This document shows positions 3,012-48,522 of a stretch of DNA of 53,582 bases, one piece after another. Position numbers and translations under genes: made by a program. Every line of letters begins with the position of its first letter. Position 1 is the first letter of the stretch. This DNA is from a virus (Duplodnaviria; Heunggongvirae; Uroviricota; Caudoviricetes), in the IMG/VR virus record IMGVR_UViG_2923318301_000003. One strand, written 5' to 3'. Below the pieces are notes generated by a model. It ran no database searches and was not told the origin of the DNA. It worked only from the letters and a program-made list of their open reading frames with translations.

Positions 3012-3402
3012 ACAATTAATTAAAGCGCTCAATAAAGCTAATAATATGCCCATGACCAAAGAAAACTTCTTAGGCTTGGTAATTATGTTGATTCTTTCAA
3101 AAGAGGTTTTTAGATCAAATTTTGATGTTAGTAAATTTATTAACAAAACCTTCAAAATATCTTTTTTGAATTATGCTGTACGGTCAAGAACTTTGATGTG
3201 CGCTAAAATTTGCAGACATATTAATGAATTAAGTGAGAATGACATAAAGATGGCTTATACGCATTTCTTAAACAACATTAACACATTAGACATTATTTTT
3301 AATGATGCAAATAAAACAAGCCAAAAATCCACATCTAAAAGCAAGCATGCTATAAGGAATTTAAATATTTGGATTAATGCAAATAAAAAGGAAGAAGAAT
3401 AA
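3004..3402 (+). CDS. Hypothetical protein, operon partner of the ParA-like ATPase
   Basis: 132-aa ORF overlapping the upstream stop; its stop overlaps the next start (ATGA at 3402). No recognisable motif. Confidence 0.6.
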   Translation: MNKQLIKALNKANNMPMTKENFLGLVIMLILSKEVFRSNFDVSKFINKTFKISFLNYAVRSRTLMCAKICRHINELSENDIKMAYTHFLNNINTLDIIFNDANKTSQKSTSKSKHAIRNLNIWINANKKEEE

Positions 3403-4067
3403 TGCTCACGCAGGATCCCTTCAACATTGGAAGAGATGTAAATTATTTTAGAGCGGAGGTGCAAAAGCACCTCAGAACCACTGATGAAATAAACAAATCA
3501 GTATCAATATTTAGGCAAATAAGTCTTTGTAATACAATTTTAAGTCACAATCCTAATCTAAATCACTCTTCTTATATAAAAGGTTTTATATATGATACCT
3601 TAAACTCCTTAATTGCCATTATAAAAAAAAGAGAACGGTATCTCCAACTGAACTTCCGCTCAATGGTGGAGCATGTGGCCAGAATAAGCCTCAATAAGAA
3701 CTACAATGGTGGGGATTTTGACCAAACTGTACGTCGTAGAGACTTTGACTTCTTAAAAGCCCAACAAGTCGATGAAGGCTGGTCTTATTTACATAATGTC
3801 TATATCAACGCCTGTTATTATGTTCACTCCTCCCCCCAAGCGAACCTAAATGTTACATCAACATTTATATCACTTATGGAGGGAGATTGTAATTCAACAC
3901 AGCATAAAATGGTGAAAAAACTTCATGAGGTAGTATCGGCGCTGATGAGAATCATTATAAAGTATTATCATCAGCATATCTCAAACATTTTCTTTAGAAA
4001 CAAAAAGGATTTAGAGAAAATAATGGGAAAAAGCCTTTATTCATATTATACCAGCTTAGACAATTAA
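3402..4067 (+). CDS. Hypothetical protein, third gene of the ParA-like operon
   Basis: 221-aa ORF translationally coupled to the upstream gene; contains R-x4/5-H spacings (RAEVQKH, RSMVEH), which are not diagnostic. Confidence 0.6.
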   Translation: MLTQDPFNIGRDVNYFRAEVQKHLRTTDEINKSVSIFRQISLCNTILSHNPNLNHSSYIKGFIYDTLNSLIAIIKKRERYLQLNFRSMVEHVARISLNKNYNGGDFDQTVRRRDFDFLKAQQVDEGWSYLHNVYINACYYVHSSPQANLNVTSTFISLMEGDCNSTQHKMVKKLHEVVSALMRIIIKYYHQHISNIFFRNKKDLEKIMGKSLYSYYTSLDN

Positions 4068-43401: not shown

Positions 43402-43862
43402 TCATCACTCGATACAGCGCGCTTGCTGCTTTTCCGTAAACACTGCTCACGACGCGCCAGAAAATTGTTTCGTTCTGGCTGGGAGTGGCTTTCACGGAAT
43501 GCCGCCATCCACACCGTTGCAGCACGACGGTATAAGCCCCTTGACTCCAGTTCTTCCGCCTGGCGGGTCAGGCACAAAATCACCCGGGGATCGTTAGTGC
43601 CGACATAGAAATTGCGCGCAGGTCTGGTTTCACGAACTGGTTGTGGTTCCGGGTCCTGCGCTCTCTCAGTCAGGCGCGGGAAATGTCTGCGTGTATCCCC
43701 TTCACAACGGTGAGCCACACGCCCACTCTGACGTAACTTGCTTGCTGACTGCAGAACGCGCTGCCGTGAGTAACCAGCAAAAGCATCCGCAATGTCTCCG
43801 GAAGTACACCCCGGATGGGCTTCAATGAATTTCTGAACGTCATTTAACAGACTCATGATCAC
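43368..43862 (-). CDS. Hypothetical regulator (PerC-like C-terminal region, tentative)
   Basis: 164-aa ORF; the segment AEELESRGLYRRAATVWMAAF resembles the PerC family from memory. Confidence 0.5.
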   Translation of the reverse strand: MIMSLLNDVQKFIEAHPGCTSGDIADAFAGYSRQRVLQSASKLRQSGRVAHRCEGDTRRHFPRLTERAQDPEPQPVRETRPARNFYVGTNDPRVILCLTRQAEELESRGLYRRAATVWMAAFRESHSQPERNNFLARREQCLRKSSKRAVSSDEWYLSGNYVGA

Positions 43863-44800
43863 CCCCTGAATCCTGCCGGGATCTGGCTGTAGTCCACGTT
43901 GTCGTAACTGGATTTGAAGTACGGGTCTTCGCGTTTTTCGGTGTACGTGCTTACGGACGGCGATAAGCGCAGGGAAAGCTCATCCCATTTTTCCCGCAGC
44001 TTCGACGGACTGAGCACGTTACGGCACCAGAACGGATCGCGGCTGACGCGGCTGTACATCTCGCAGATTTGTTTGTGAGTACGACCATCCTGCACACACA
44101 TCAGGCGAATTTCGTTTGCCCAGGCTGTCCAGTTCGGTTCTTTGGGACGAACCACCTCGCCGTCACATTCGGCGGCCTGCTCGTACAGGGCGATGATTTT
44201 TTTCCAGAGCCACTGTGCGCAGGTCAAATCATCCTGCGTCCCCCACTGGCGCTTTTTAGGGCTGAATACAACCGCATCAGGATGGCGAGTTAAAAAATCC
44301 TGTTCAGCCGTCTGCGTGTCCGGTTGCGAAGCGTCCGGACGAGAAGGTTTTTTATCTGACGGATCATGTTTTGATTTTACTGACGGATCCCCGCCAGATT
44401 CTGACGGGTGAAAACCCGCTTTTTTGCCAGATTTCGACGCATCAAATTTTGACGGGTCAGATTTTGATGCGTCAGATTTTGACGGGTCAGAATCTGACAG
44501 TTGAGAAAATGCCGCTGCCTGAAGCTTCGCAACGTTAAGCTGATAAACATTCGACGCATTGCGGTTACCCTGGCGACGCGCCTTACGCGTTAACCAGCCT
44601 TCTGCTTCCAGCCGTGCGATAGCCGTTCTGACGGTACTCATCCCCGCGCCAATCTGACGGGCAATGGTTTCAATTGATGGCCAGCACACACCTTCGTCAT
44701 TACTGAAATCAGCCAGGCGGGCCATAATTGCCACGCTGGATAATTTCATGCCTGACGCAGCGCAACCATCCCATACATAGCCGGTTAATTTAGTGCTCAT
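43859..44800 (-). CDS. Replication initiator (lambda O-like role) with N-terminal HTH and internal iteron-encoded repeats
   Basis: 313-aa ORF with N-terminal winged-HTH-like region; the central repetitive peptide (DPSKSDASKSDPSKFDASKSG) coincides with DNA iterons. Confidence 0.7.
   Translation of the reverse strand: MSTKLTGYVWDGCAASGMKLSSVAIMARLADFSNDEGVCWPSIETIARQIGAGMSTVRTAIARLEAEGWLTRKARRQGNRNASNVYQLNVAKLQAAAFSQLSDSDPSKSDASKSDPSKFDASKSGKKAGFHPSESGGDPSVKSKHDPSDKKPSRPDASQPDTQTAEQDFLTRHPDAVVFSPKKRQWGTQDDLTCAQWLWKKIIALYEQAAECDGEVVRPKEPNWTAWANEIRLMCVQDGRTHKQICEMYSRVSRDPFWCRNVLSPSKLREKWDELSLRLSPSVSTYTEKREDPYFKSSYDNVDYSQIPAGFRG
44350..44505. repeat. Array of ~8 direct ~15-bp iterons (consensus about ATTTTGACGGGTCAG) inside the initiator gene: candidate replication origin
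   Basis: Tandem repeats visible at 44351, 44373, 44395, 44430, 44445, 44461, 44476 and 44491; analogous to ori-lambda inside O. Confidence 0.7.
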
Positions 44801-44809
44801 GACCGACCT

Positions 44810-45148
44810 CTATTTCCCTGAATTTACGACGAAACTGTTCGAGCGGGCTGAAGCACTCATGCTCATAGCCTTCGCGGAGGTAGATAACCCGTTGTGTTTC
44901 CGGCTCCCAACGAATGACTCTGACGGGCACTCCGTAGTGATCTTTGAACCAGCGGTTAACTTGTCGCAAAGGACTGTCTCCTTCTGCCGGTTGAAATCAC
45001 CCACAGCCCACTCTGCAAAGCTGTGGGTTACAATTTCCCTGTCACCTGGTACATTTACTGCATAGCAATACTCCACCTTCGCTTTTCCACCCGGTACAGG
45101 AAGCGCAATCAGTTGCGAGCGACGGTAGTGTGTTGTTAAACTGTTCAT
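44810..45148 (-). CDS. Hypothetical protein, translationally coupled to the upstream regulator gene
   Basis: 112-aa ORF whose ATG overlaps the upstream stop (ATGA), ending 10 nt before the initiator gene. Confidence 0.5.
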
Positions 45149-45696
45149 GCGTTAGTTTCTCCACAGTCACGACACGCCACGGCGCCCGGAGCTGCACACT
45201 CGCGGGCGTCATTACTTTCTGAAATGCAAAAGATTTTGTAGACCAGTGCTGCATGCTCCTGCAGCTTCGAAATTGAGAGATACAGCTCGTCGTTAATTGC
45301 TGTCTTCTCATGCGGTTCCACCACACCGTCTTCGATTGCCGAACGAATCTGTCTGGAATAACTGCCAATCTGTTCAATGACTTCCAGCAGGCGCTGGTTA
45401 ATATCGGCGTTGTCCACATCCTCGACGTCAGGAAGAGACACAAAGACGCCATTTGCAGACTGCGCCACAGCGTCAGCAATGAAGTGAGTTCCACCAGCAC
45501 GTTGCAAAATCATTGCCCATCCCAGCGGGAAAATCTGATCGCCATCGGCACGAAGGCGGTTAAATAATGCGTTCTCTGTTACATCCAGCCAGTCAGCAGC
45601 TTCAGCGTACCCCCCCGGCAACGCTGCGATAGTTTTTCTGACAGCTTTCACGTACCACTCAGGCTGTTTTTCTACTTTCCAGTGATGCTTACCCAC
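45145..45696 (-). CDS. CII-like/YdaT-family regulator (tentative)
   Basis: 183-aa ORF directly downstream of, and overlapping, the Cro-like gene; occupies the cII position. Confidence 0.5.
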
Positions 45697-45949
45697 GGTT
45701 CACCTCCTGTTCCTGTGGTTTAAACCCATTCTGGTTTTGGCTAGATTGAAAACGTGCCGGATAAAGAATCTGCATTTCGCTGACTTCACCCTTAAAAAAA
45801 TTGGCTAAACGTTCTGCAAGCTCGATAGATGGAATCTGCTCCAGCCTCTCAATACGACTCAACGTCGCTGGATTGACTTGAACACCCGCAGCAACATGCT
45901 GCAAAGTGAAACCATGCGCCTTACGCACATTTCGTAATGGTGATTGCAT
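45689..45949 (-). CDS. Cro/YdaS-like HTH regulator
   Basis: 86-aa ORF with an HTH (GFTLQHVAAGVQVNPATLSRIER); divergent from the repressor gene; GGAGG RBS. Confidence 0.8.
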   Translation of the reverse strand: MQSPLRNVRKAHGFTLQHVAAGVQVNPATLSRIERLEQIPSIELAERLANFFKGEVSEMQILYPARFQSSQNQNGFKPQEQEVNRG

Positions 45950-45959
45950 ATGTCCTCCA

Positions 45960-46031
45960 AATATTGCGCGTTATGCATGTTATTTCACGCAATTATTTTG
46001 CGCAAGTTGATTTGCTTATCACGCAATAAAG
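45960..46031. promoter_or_regulatory. Divergent promoter/operator region with three related operator-like sites
   Basis: Repeated CGCAA/TTGCG half-sites: TTGCGCG (~45964), palindrome CGCAA-ttatt-TTGCG and TTGCGCAA (45988..46005), CACGCAA (~46020); lies between the divergent cro-like and cI-like starts. Confidence 0.6.
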
Positions 46032-46046
46032 AAATGTAATAAACGC

Positions 46047-46739
46047 ATGAACATAGGAAACCGAGTCAGACAACTTCGCCAAGCGAAGAACATGAAAATC
46101 GCCGATCTCGCTGAAGCAATAGGAGTAGATGCGGCGAACATCTCGCGCTTAGAAACGGGTAAGCAAAAACAATTTACCGAACAAACACTGAGTAATATTG
46201 CCAAGAGCTTAGGTGTTGATATTGCTGATCTCTTTACCTCTGCCCACAAAAGTAATACTGTATATAAAAACAGTAATAATGAGGATGTTGCGCAGGTGAA
46301 GGATGTGTTCCGTATTGAAATGCTGGATATCAGTGCCAGTGCGGGAAATGGCCTTATCCAGGGCGGTGATGTCATTGATGTGATTCATGCCATCGAATAC
46401 AGAACTGATAATGCTGTATCAATGTTCGGCGGACGACCAGCCAATCACATCAAAGTTATCAACGTTCGTGGGGACAGTATGTGTCCAACCATTGAGCCAG
46501 GAGATCTCATCTTCGTTGATGTCAGCATCAATCAGTTTGATGGTGATGGTATATATGTCTTTGGTTTTGATGACAAAATATACGTTAAAAGACTTCAAAT
46601 GATTCCTGACAAACTGCTGGTGATTTCTGATAACCAGATTTACCGTGAATGGGGAATTACTAGCGAAAACGAACACCGATTCATGGTCTTTGGAAAGGTC
46701 TTAATCAGTCAGTCGCAAACCCTTAAGAGACATAATTAA
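46047..46739 (+). CDS. CI-like repressor (HTH-XRE plus S24 LexA-like autopeptidase)
   Basis: N-terminal HTH; C-terminal GDSM...KR Ser-Lys dyad and an Ala-Gly site (SAGNG); 230 aa. Confidence 0.9.
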   Translation: MNIGNRVRQLRQAKNMKIADLAEAIGVDAANISRLETGKQKQFTEQTLSNIAKSLGVDIADLFTSAHKSNTVYKNSNNEDVAQVKDVFRIEMLDISASAGNGLIQGGDVIDVIHAIEYRTDNAVSMFGGRPANHIKVINVRGDSMCPTIEPGDLIFVDVSINQFDGDGIYVFGFDDKIYVKRLQMIPDKLLVISDNQIYREWGITSENEHRFMVFGKVLISQSQTLKRHN

Positions 46740-46756
46740 CCTCAATATCCCATCCA

Positions 46757-46785
46757 TCGGCCACCGAAAGGTGGCTTTTTATTAC
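46757..46785 (+). terminator. Rho-independent terminator downstream of the repressor gene
   Basis: cggccacc-gaaa-ggtggc followed by a T-run. Confidence 0.7.
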
Positions 46786-47078
46786 CTATAAATTTGCATA
46801 TTTCGCAAACATCACTTGCATATCTCGCAATTTAATTTTATCTTTTGTTCCAGACCAACTACAGGATTACAACAAAATCTGGTTGCAACACGGTGCATGT
46901 GTCGTAAGCAGTCAGTAAATGTCAAAAACGAACAGGCAGGACGCCCACGAAGTAGCCGCCTGGGGCATATGAAGTCCAGGATGATTCGTTAGCAACAAAA
47001 AAGCGCCCTACAGGACGCTTAGCTCTTTAACAATCTGGTCCCCATCAACAAGTAACTGATAACTTGAGGAGATGTGAA

Positions 47079-47285
47079 ATGCACAAAACAGAACCCAAAA
47101 TCGTCGCGCCTGGCTACACAGATGAGGAAATTTATGAGTGGATGACAAAGAAGCTGGCAGCTATAAACCAGCTTCGTGAAGTGCTGTCTTATCGACAGGA
47201 AACAATAGACTCCTTAAAAAAACTGGATCAGGAAATCACGGTTTTATCACAGGATGTTACTTTAGATATTGTGCAGACAAATTAG
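47079..47285 (+). CDS. Small hypothetical protein
   Basis: GAGGAG RBS 7 nt before the ATG; 68 aa; its 3' end overlaps the convergent gene by 29 nt. Confidence 0.55.
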   Translation: MHKTEPKIVAPGYTDEEIYEWMTKKLAAINQLREVLSYRQETIDSLKKLDQEITVLSQDVTLDIVQTN

Positions 47286-47691
47286 GATCCCATTCATTTT
47301 CGTCAAAATCATCAAAGTGATGAATTTGTGATCTCCAGTCTCGATAATCTAAAAATTTCTGGGCGGTTACGCTTATTTTATCAAGTGTGAGTTCATCCTG
47401 AATTGAAAGAAGAAGTTCATCAAATTTCATCTCATTAATCTGTTTTGGCATCCAGTGATGCTTCATCAGAATAAGGTGAACCAGAGCCTTTTTCCCATTC
47501 AACTGATTATAGGGAGTGCCGAATTTCTTCCGGTGCTCATGTAAGACAAGGTCCAAAAGAGTAAGTAATGTTGCCCTTGATTCAACTTTGCTTATTTCGA
47601 CTGATGACACTACCCCACTGATTTCAATGCCCCGATACTTTCCAACATTTTCACAGTGGGATTTGTACAGCGTATAGATATTACCGGACAT
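47257..47691 (-). CDS. Hypothetical protein (no TM helices, no known motif)
   Basis: 144-aa ORF with an AAGGA RBS; convergent with the upstream small ORF. Confidence 0.6.
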   Translation of the reverse strand: MSGNIYTLYKSHCENVGKYRGIEISGVVSSVEISKVESRATLLTLLDLVLHEHRKKFGTPYNQLNGKKALVHLILMKHHWMPKQINEMKFDELLLSIQDELTLDKISVTAQKFLDYRDWRSQIHHFDDFDENEWDPNLSAQYLK

Positions 47692-48159
47692 TTCTTTTCC
47701 TTTTGCATTGTTGGGGATAACCAGATTAACCGAATCCTTGTTGTTGGGGAATAACTAGGTCCACCTCGCCTGATGTGGCTAAAAGCAGGCACATAACAGC
47801 TAAGTATTTTCAACCAGAGAGAATCCTTAGCGTTGTGGTGAATGCGGCTCAGCGCACGCGGGTTAAGGTTGAGGCTGACAGTCGACCTTCTGTGGATACC
47901 CACCCGCCTGGTGTGCAACCTTCGCCAGGCACCGGGAGGCACCCGGCACCACAACTTTATGCTGTGTGTAGTCTTGGCGGTACCAGCTTGTACCCTTGCT
48001 TCCGGCTGGTACCGTCCTTTTTACAAAACAGAGAAGAGCATCACCGGACGACGGGCTCATAACCCAATCCATCCGGGCGGCAGTCACCGCAGGTGTTCTT
48101 CTCTGTTTTGTGGAGAAACTAACCGACCTTGCAGGGTCGATATGATGAGGAGCAGCAAA

Positions 48160-48522
48160 ATGGCTAGCGAACGCAGTACTGATGTGCAGGCATTTATCGG
48201 GGAGCTGGACGGCGGCGTATTTGAAACCAAAATCGGCGCAGTTCTCAGTGAAGTCGCTTCCGGTGTGATGAACACGAAAACCAAAGGTAAGGTCTCGCTC
48301 AACCTGGAAATCGAACCGTTTGATGAGAACCGAGTGAAAATCAAACACAAACTCTCATATGTTCGCCCGACTAACCGCGGGAAAATTTCCGAAGAAGACA
48401 CCACCGAAACGCCGATGTATGTCAATCGCGGTGGTCGCCTGACTATTCTGCAGGAAGACCAGGGACAGTTACTGACTCTTGCCGGTGAACCTGACGGAAA
48501 ACTCCGCGCAGCAGGTCGTTAA
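48160..48522 (+). CDS. YfdP-like prophage protein
   Basis: 120-aa ORF with a GAGGAG RBS; first of a block whose sizes and order (120, 274, ~178, 120, 101 aa) match the CPS-53 yfdPQRST block from memory. Confidence 0.6.
   Translation: MASERSTDVQAFIGELDGGVFETKIGAVLSEVASGVMNTKTKGKVSLNLEIEPFDENRVKIKHKLSYVRPTNRGKISEEDTTETPMYVNRGGRLTILQEDQGQLLTLAGEPDGKLRAAGR

Follow-up and report, generated by a model that had tools for sequence, protein, structure and literature searches.

We describe two small convergent genes, here called A and B, that lie beside the immunity region of an SfV/SfII/SfIV-like Escherichia coli prophage. The window is the whole 53,582-nt stretch of DNA in IMG/VR record IMGVR_UViG_2923318301_000003, and positions refer to it unless another locus is named; handles beginning with L denote the loci with which it was compared. 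Gene A is read in the same direction as a putative early-left promoter (pL) and gene B is read against it. The pair consists of the following features:

47079–47285, plus strand: gene A, 68 amino acids, from the ATG at 47079 to the end of the TAG stop at 47285; YdfC family by sequence; sense to pL
47257–47691, minus strand: gene B, 144 amino acids, from the ATG at 47691 to the stop at 47257; ECs1072 family by sequence; antisense to pL
47257–47285, both strands: the 29-bp overlap of the 3′ ends of A and B, from the open reading frame (ORF) list and the sequence

The ORF list and the sequence bear out what an earlier note on this DNA had claimed of the pair, namely that a 68- and a 144-amino-acid ORF converge with 29 bp of 3′ overlap and that both have good ribosome-binding sites (GAGGAG, 7 nt before the start of A, and AAGGAA upstream of B). 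They are genes and not chance ORFs, because both are annotated by the Prokaryotic Genome Annotation Pipeline (PGAP) in an E. coli chromosome that matches at 100% identity (WP_000549623.1 and WP_000016389.1), both match PHROG families over their full lengths (A, phrog_1744, 6e-35; B, phrog_5286, 1.5e-90), both are kept with the identical 29-bp overlap geometry in a locus that is 85% identical at the DNA level (L022), and both have low ratios of nonsynonymous to synonymous substitution rates (0.13–0.23 for A and 0.22–0.23 for B). Purifying selection acts on both genes. The two proteins are soluble, mildly acidic and free of hydrophobic segments; the maximum Kyte–Doolittle value over a 19-residue window is 0.29 for A and 0.84 for B, and neither has a transmembrane segment.

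By sequence, A is a member of the YdfC family. BLASTP aligns it with YdfC over 66 of its 68 residues at 39% identity (E 1e-17), both proteins match phrog_1744 over the full length, and the source database names cluster P0234 ‘protein YdfC’. The AlphaFold2 model of A (mean predicted local distance difference test, pLDDT, 87) has an extended 14-residue N-terminus followed by one helix at residues 15–67, and the N-terminal region carries the conserved motif P-x-I-x-A-P-G-Y-T-D-E-E-I-x-E-W. The ydfC gene is a promoter-proximal gene of the dicBF operon in the Qin prophage of E. coli K-12, and YdfC has no assigned function (PMC5069750); consequently, the homology names A without explaining it. It does bear on one suggestion. 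The earlier note had said that this slot commonly holds lysogen-expressed exclusion or defence genes and had named, beforehand, clear homology to ordinary phage early functions as one result that would count against its reading; for A, the homologue is just such an early gene.

B belongs, by profile comparison, to the ECs1072 family. It scores 157.8 bits against NCBIfam model NF033230 (cut-off 70; E 1.7e-46), covering profile positions 2–142 of 142, and WP_000016389.1 carries the PGAP name ‘ECs1072 family phage-associated protein’. The family is small and self-contained: a profile search of 1.84 billion representative proteins returned just 76 clusters, nearly all about 145–175 amino acids long or shorter fragments, and none fused to another domain. 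Across the family alignment H72 and W134 are invariant and R54, L64, G66 and A69 nearly so. AlphaFold2 models B as an all-helical bundle (pLDDT 82; predicted template modeling score 0.82), for which fold searches yielded no relative by structure, and a profile of 53 family members found nothing among PDB sequences at E ≤ 10. Scans of A and B with Pfam, PADLOC and NCBIfam returned no functional family beyond the two hypothetical-protein names. The statement that neither protein has recognisable motifs therefore holds for Pfam and PADLOC, but not for family membership, since B passes the NF033230 cut-off and A is 39% identical to YdfC. In PADLOC-DB v2 there was no match for A, for B or for eight of nine further family members, and the lone match, given by member P0125, is at chance level (13.4 bits, E 0.015). 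Two candidate identities of B were tried and rejected. A HEPN nuclease is not supported, as the Rx4-6H motif is absent (R54 and H72 are 17 residues apart) and the HEPN matches have template modeling scores below 0.3; a resemblance to HD domains in the fold lists has chance-level scores, and the catalytic motifs are absent.

The arrangement of the two genes is conserved far more widely than the window. Related loci were found with a sub-family alignment of B, the whole-family alignment having no sufficiently conserved stretch. In all, the convergent overlapping pair was seen in some 15 divergent lineages, among which the identity of B falls as low as about 25–30%. All 14 phage database records with a full-length B have a small convergent partner overlapping the 3′ end of B (6 SfIV-like phages, 3 ST64B-like Salmonella phages and 5 Klebsiella phages); the gene models were inspected directly in ST64B and KPP5665-2, and the pairing in the other records was deduced from tblastn coordinates. 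The overlap is 44 bp in a metagenomic locus (L007), 71 bp in Serratia (L011), 83 bp in Photorhabdus (L013/14) and 113 bp in Limnobaculum (L015), and very divergent lineages are paired as well (101 bp in L030; 59 bp in L031/32). Starting from the partner instead, 4 of 4 sampled loci (Citrobacter, Enterobacter, E. coli M056 and Serratia ficaria) have a convergent B with an overlap of 74–92 bp. Related pairs thus occur in prophages of Salmonella, Klebsiella, Citrobacter, Enterobacter, Serratia, Photorhabdus and Limnobaculum. The partners themselves are homologous: the ST64B type (phrog_3501, about 80–90 amino acids) aligns with the YdfC type over 58 columns (hhalign probability 94.6%, E 7e-8), and the Serratia partner matches both PHROG families.

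These pairs occupy three slots, each within a lytic operon. The first is downstream of pL, with the repressor on one side and the early-left genes on the other (the window and L031). The second lies inside the pR operon, between a cII-like gene and the replication genes (prophage Sp4 of E. coli O157 Sakai). The third and commonest is the interval between the antiterminator gene Q and the holin gene (ST64B, Klebsiella, Serratia, Photorhabdus, Limnobaculum, Citrobacter, Enterobacter and E. coli M056). One strand rule covers all cases in the three slots: the partner is sense to the lytic operon and B is antisense. In Sakai Sp4 (L034, 14114–14855), the gene that gave the family its name, ECs1072 (now ECs_5703), encodes a distant B-family protein of 151 amino acids and stands antisense in the pR operon, and an unannotated partner-like ORF converges on it with an overlap of up to 317 bp. 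We hold with high confidence that A and B represent a conserved module with a fixed strand rule. The family names YdfC and ECs1072 were already known, both for hypothetical proteins in databases; what is new here is the recognition that the two make up a single conserved module, overlapping in antisense and fixed in its orientation to lytic transcription. Searches of the open-access literature on ECs1072, on ydfC with dicB and on morons and antisense genes turned up no account of the pairing.

Several further observations concern individual pairs. Near the stop of B, the Q-slot pairs in L008, L009, L023, L025, L027 and L028 share the palindrome TGGGATCCCA, which is read as W-D-P in each of the two proteins, on opposite strands. 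In the window, the TAG stop of A (47283–47285) directly precedes GGATCCCA (region 47283–47295), a placement that makes the short E. coli A look truncated relative to the longer partners. In ST64B (L008), the 144-amino-acid B-family ORF at 3281–3715 (plus strand) is unannotated in AY055382 and its partner lies at 3645–4004 (minus strand); phrog_3501 aligns with ST64B sb50 from residue 35 onwards, so the annotated start of that gene probably lies some 34 codons too early. In a Citrobacter-type prophage (L023, 924–2332, minus strand), a DUF6731 gene (304 amino acids) and a 159-amino-acid gene lie between Q and the partner; these minus-strand genes form a further antisense cargo unit at this hot spot.

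In the window, both genes are carried on a single cassette whose borders and signals are as follows:

46991–47760: cargo cassette, 770 bp, delimited by blastn breakpoints against the SfII and SfV backbones (L002, L003)
47001–47020, minus strand: intrinsic terminator on the strand of B, AAGCGTCCTGTAGGGCGCTT followed by U6, just upstream of the start of A
47150–47175, minus strand: hairpin inside the coding region of A, with a 9-bp stem, −15.6 kcal/mol, z −3.6 and a weak U tract
47692–47760, minus strand: leader of B, possibly also its promoter, conserved 5′ of B, with the direct repeat TTAT(T)CCCCAACAA present twice

Similarity to the SfII and SfV backbones ends at 46990/46991 and resumes at 47760/47761, and the segment between holds the minus-strand terminator, A, B and the B leader. 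At least 80% of the cassette is found in 407 of 5426 complete E. coli genomes (about 7.5%). Other relatives carry unrelated genes in the same slot, namely SfV orf33, SfII_36, a 242-amino-acid gene of PhiR29_1 and a helix-turn-helix (HTH) gene of mEp460_4F5, none of which has a convincing defence-family match; in many E. coli genomes the slot holds minus-strand genes of 167–173 amino acids together with the ~50-nt leader (47708–47760) and the left-end terminator. The pair is cargo within a swap-prone socket and not part of the phage backbone. E. coli SCEC020023 has two 100% identical copies of the cassette (NZ_CP025950.3, 1520463–1521232 and 3839453–3840222), presumably in two prophages.

We now turn to the immunity region, whose layout determines which promoter the pair stands behind. 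Its features are:

45145–45696, minus strand: cII-like gene
45689–45949, minus strand: cro
46047–46739, plus strand: cI-type repressor with HTH and S24 peptidase domains (Pfam Peptidase_S24, 6e-19; HTH_3, 1e-11)
46759–46776, plus strand: intrinsic terminator of cI from the terminator scan, GGCCACCGAAAGGTGGCT followed by TTTTATT; an annotated terminator in SfII
46794–46844, plus strand: candidate left operator (OL), with exact operator copies at 46794–46808 and 46816–46830 and the putative pL overlapping

The cI region is 99% identical to that of SfII. A 15-bp operator, TTGCNTATNNCGCAA, has three exact copies in the 53.6 kb: the copy at 46012, between cro and cI, is the right operator, and we read those at 46794 and 46816 as OL. 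The putative pL comprises a −35 hexamer TTGCAT at 46816–21, a 17-bp spacer and a −10 hexamer TATCTT at 46839–44, a layout that mirrors the pR side; these hexamers were read from the sequence and failed a consensus promoter scan, and pL transcription is accordingly treated as putative throughout. Downstream, the early-left order is A, an STnc100-like RNA, yfdP-Q-R-S-T, xis and int, with the downstream genes on the same strand as A. Because the operators at 46794 and 46816 follow the cI terminator and precede A, the pair lies past OL and the putative pL, heading the early-left operon. The earlier note had placed it immediately after the cI terminator, in the position that lambda uses for rexAB. 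Neither description survives, as about 300 bp intervene, in which lie the OL operators (46794–46830), the putative pL and a conserved leader. With repressor operators and a putative pL upstream, A has the early-left operon position that ydfC also has; as a gene read with pL, it is expected to be silent in lysogens.

The signals on the opposite strand suggest that B may be a transcription unit of its own. The window-type leader of B (about 50 nt) is about 85–90% conserved where the B proteins are only 52–56% identical, and the same leader also precedes unrelated minus-strand cargo genes in other prophages. Besides its two copies of TTAT(T)CCCCAACAA, the leader contains A-rich AAN runs and two GGA motifs (47708–47751, minus strand), and a protein or a small RNA may bind at these repeats. 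Q-slot B genes from six genera share an invariant TGnTAnnnT about 40 nt before the start codon, which has the signature of an extended −10 promoter. At the other end, the hairpin at 47001–47020 gains stability from G-U pairs on the minus strand (centroid −11.5 kcal/mol, against a minimum free energy of −7.5 kcal/mol on the plus strand), and the terminator is kept with a different loop in L007 (1206–1224). ST64B and Serratia have canonical hairpins with U tracts on the B strand inside the partner ORF (z −3.4 and −3.75). Predicted from sequence, terminators were found on the strand of B only, inside A or just beyond it, so that B appears to have the terminator of its own that characterizes a moron. 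Since the ORFs overlap and the terminators are placed inside or beyond A, overlapping A and B mRNAs are implied, and the two may be an antisense-coupled, excludon-like pair; if the B transcript ends at 47001–47020, its 3′ part is complementary to all of A, including the ribosome-binding site.

Hints of expression come from two relatives and are weak. ECs1072 gave a growth-phase-dependent microarray signal in uninduced O157 Sakai (PMC2241611), and ydfC does not appear among the genes listed as expressed by the LF82 prophage Tritos in lysogens (PMC9928086). The idea that the slot holds a lysogen-expressed accessory gene is upheld in spirit for B alone, though its rexAB position is not. B looks like a moron expressed in lysogens because it is antisense to pL, occupies a variable socket, shares its leader and terminator with other cargo, and has relatives with an extended −10 promoter.

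The pair, then, represents a conserved two-gene module that temperate phages of Enterobacterales carry as cargo inside their lytic operons. Our reading of how it works, offered tentatively and with somewhat less than even confidence, is as follows. In the lysogen, the repressor would shut pL and keep A off, while B would be made from its own promoter as an mRNA running antisense across A. Upon induction, transcription from pL must cross the whole of B to reach yfdP through xis-int; this read-through would produce A and, through transcriptional interference and the pairing of the two RNAs, silence B. Being made first, the A protein, with its single long helix and conserved N-terminal motif, may attach to and neutralise any B protein present beforehand. 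On this view B would act in the cytoplasm as an accessory protein during lysogeny, most likely either as a defence of the exclusion or abortive-infection type or as a brake on lytic development, and A would be the phage’s own release from it. The parts of this proposal differ in strength. We judge the mutually exclusive antisense expression of A and B to be evenly balanced on the sequence signals; that A is a protein antagonist of B is possible and somewhat unlikely; and a role of B in anti-phage defence is a doubtful proposition, a shade weaker than the antagonism.

Several results weigh against this proposal. The coupling of A and B is not obligatory, because L005 and the chromosome of Erwinia tasmaniensis (L012) carry B with no partner, and partners occur without B in Qin/PPompW and in phage SKA5. 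A consensus promoter scan found no sigma-70 promoter for B in the window. The gene with the Sakai microarray signal is just a distant homologue, and the array is not shown to be strand-specific. Neither family resembles known defence proteins in PADLOC (A, B and the nine further members). Two loci show the genes in other states: a partner stands beside a truncated B in phage 118970_sal3, and the orphan B of L012 (3001–3444) is flanked by a LacI-type regulator and a sensor kinase, whose gene it overlaps by 12 bp at the 3′ end, with neither partner nor phage genes within 3 kb.

Other readings of the module account for parts of the same evidence. It may be a phage-internal regulator of the lytic programme, in which B, as a protein or an antisense RNA, restrains leakage or read-through of the operon and A is controlled by B or relieves it. 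We consider this unlikely overall, even as several features speak for it: the module always follows closely on a main promoter of the lytic programme or on an antiterminator (pL, pR or Q), lytic-strand terminators flank it in Serratia and Photorhabdus, the 3′ untranslated region of B would cover the start site of A if the transcript ends at 47001–47020, and the partner is common without B, as expected of a gene with a function of its own. However, a regulator of the backbone sits poorly with cargo that the relatives SfII, SfV, PhiR29 and mEp460 lack, carrying unrelated genes in the slot, and with the lone B of L012, whose chromosomal surroundings are not those of a phage. A more specific version of our proposal makes the module an undescribed, self-immune prophage defence system, with B as effector, A as antidote and antisense transcription as the lytic switch-off; we regard this as quite unlikely.

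A toxin–antitoxin or addiction module, with both genes expressed in the lysogen and one product neutralising the other, is improbable. Two small genes that stay tightly linked across deep divergence would suit it, HEPN toxins recur among the non-significant Foldseek matches, and in ST64B no lytic-strand terminator was found between a pR′-like promoter and the partner, so the partner there might be constitutive. However, the convergent orientation is unlike that of type II systems, which are co-directional operons with recognisable folds; A of the window stands behind a promoter carrying repressor operators; the Rx4-6H motif of HEPN is absent from the B family and fold matches are at chance level; and orphan B genes persist in chromosomes. 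It is equally improbable that A and B are unrelated neighbours, an ordinary YdfC-type early gene and an independent moron whose overlap is mere compaction: each gene does occur alone somewhere and the slot is a hot spot of swapped cargo, but the same convergent overlap in about 15 lineages, at B identities down to about 25–30%, recurs in three operon contexts beside different Q and holin families, and the two genes share a single 770-bp cassette in the window.

Downstream of the cassette, the operon continues with the following features:

47802–48025, plus strand: STnc100/PasD-like small RNA region (Rfam RF02076, 43.4 bits against a gathering score of 47, E 2e-7)
48160–48522, plus strand: yfdP, the next early-left gene (PGAP on the identical locus; phrog_204)

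STnc100 has been described as a prophage small RNA (bioRxiv 10.64898/2026.05.13.724894). The STnc100-like region here has a weak DicF-like 3′ hairpin at 47963–48017, and in an identical genome PGAP places a ‘frameshifted hypothetical protein’ pseudogene over it (L004, 4136–4446), a call that is probably an RNA misread as protein. We dropped the idea that this RNA is a put antiterminator RNA of the HK022 type, as the HK022 immunity and pL/pR region has no STnc100 match. A 67-bp stretch beyond the putative pL (46924–46990, plus strand) is conserved among SfIV, SfV and SfII despite their differing immunity regions and cargo, contains a weak hairpin (46932–46948) and could be a nut-like or leader element. 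Within the O-like replication gene (43859–44800), short units are reiterated at 44370–44560 (translations such as QILTGQ and NLTRQ, in several frames) and probably mark the origin iterons.

Known systems resemble the module in part. A resembles Qin ydfC in its 39% identity, its PHROG family, its promoter-proximal place in an operator-bearing early-left operon, and its position upstream of a long region containing a small RNA (STnc100-like here; the Qin order is ydfA-ydfB-ydfC-dicF-dicB-ydfD; PMC5069750). In contrast to the window, the ydfC genes of Qin and PPompW have no B-family gene converging on them.

In lambda, rexAB occupies the interval from cI to OL and shares a transcript with cI; its product RexB is a membrane protein. 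The pair shares with rexAB its place beside the immunity region, among accessory genes, and the possible lysogenic expression of B. However, here the pair lies beyond OL and the putative pL, the genes converge, A is on the pL strand and both proteins are soluble; Pfam, PHROG-function, PADLOC and NCBIfam searches of A and B gave no similarity to RexA or RexB. The pair is therefore no counterpart of RexAB, whether judged by its position, its transcription unit, its sequence or the type of protein encoded.

The closest case in design among those we found is Pseudomonas phage Fc02, in which olg1 and gene 10 both gave superinfection exclusion experimentally (PMC9936078): a lysogenic-strand gene next to the repressor is overlapped by an opposite-strand gene of the lytic operon. 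Fc02 belongs to an unrelated phage family, and the comparison is one of gene arrangement alone.

The slot between Q and the lysis genes carries stx in Stx phages, and the classical moron is a single autonomous unit. B is like a moron in its own leader and terminators, in the swapped cargo of its socket and in having relatives between Q and holin; unlike a moron, it is consistently coupled to an overlapping partner on the lytic strand. P22 sieB/esc and BstA/aba are exclusion or abortive-infection genes of prophages with self-immunity elements of their own: SieB is a membrane protein, esc corresponds to a start site inside sieB, and aba consists of a DNA element. As a functional comparison only, these systems also combine a lysogen-expressed effector with a phage-encoded release that spares the phage’s own lytic cycle; there is no homology, and the putative release here would be a separate convergent gene.

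Viewed as a module, the pair provides a first handle on YdfC, the product of a K-12 gene, and it improves annotation by adding the unrecorded B homologue of ST64B and the probable correction to sb50. It also serves as a model for how a prophage may switch off an accessory function on entering the lytic cycle. Should B turn out to act in defence or in the control of lysogeny, the module would represent a new family and a new regulatory design among prophage accessory genes. If the defence-system reading is true, orphan YdfC-type genes such as K-12 ydfC would be counter-defence genes.

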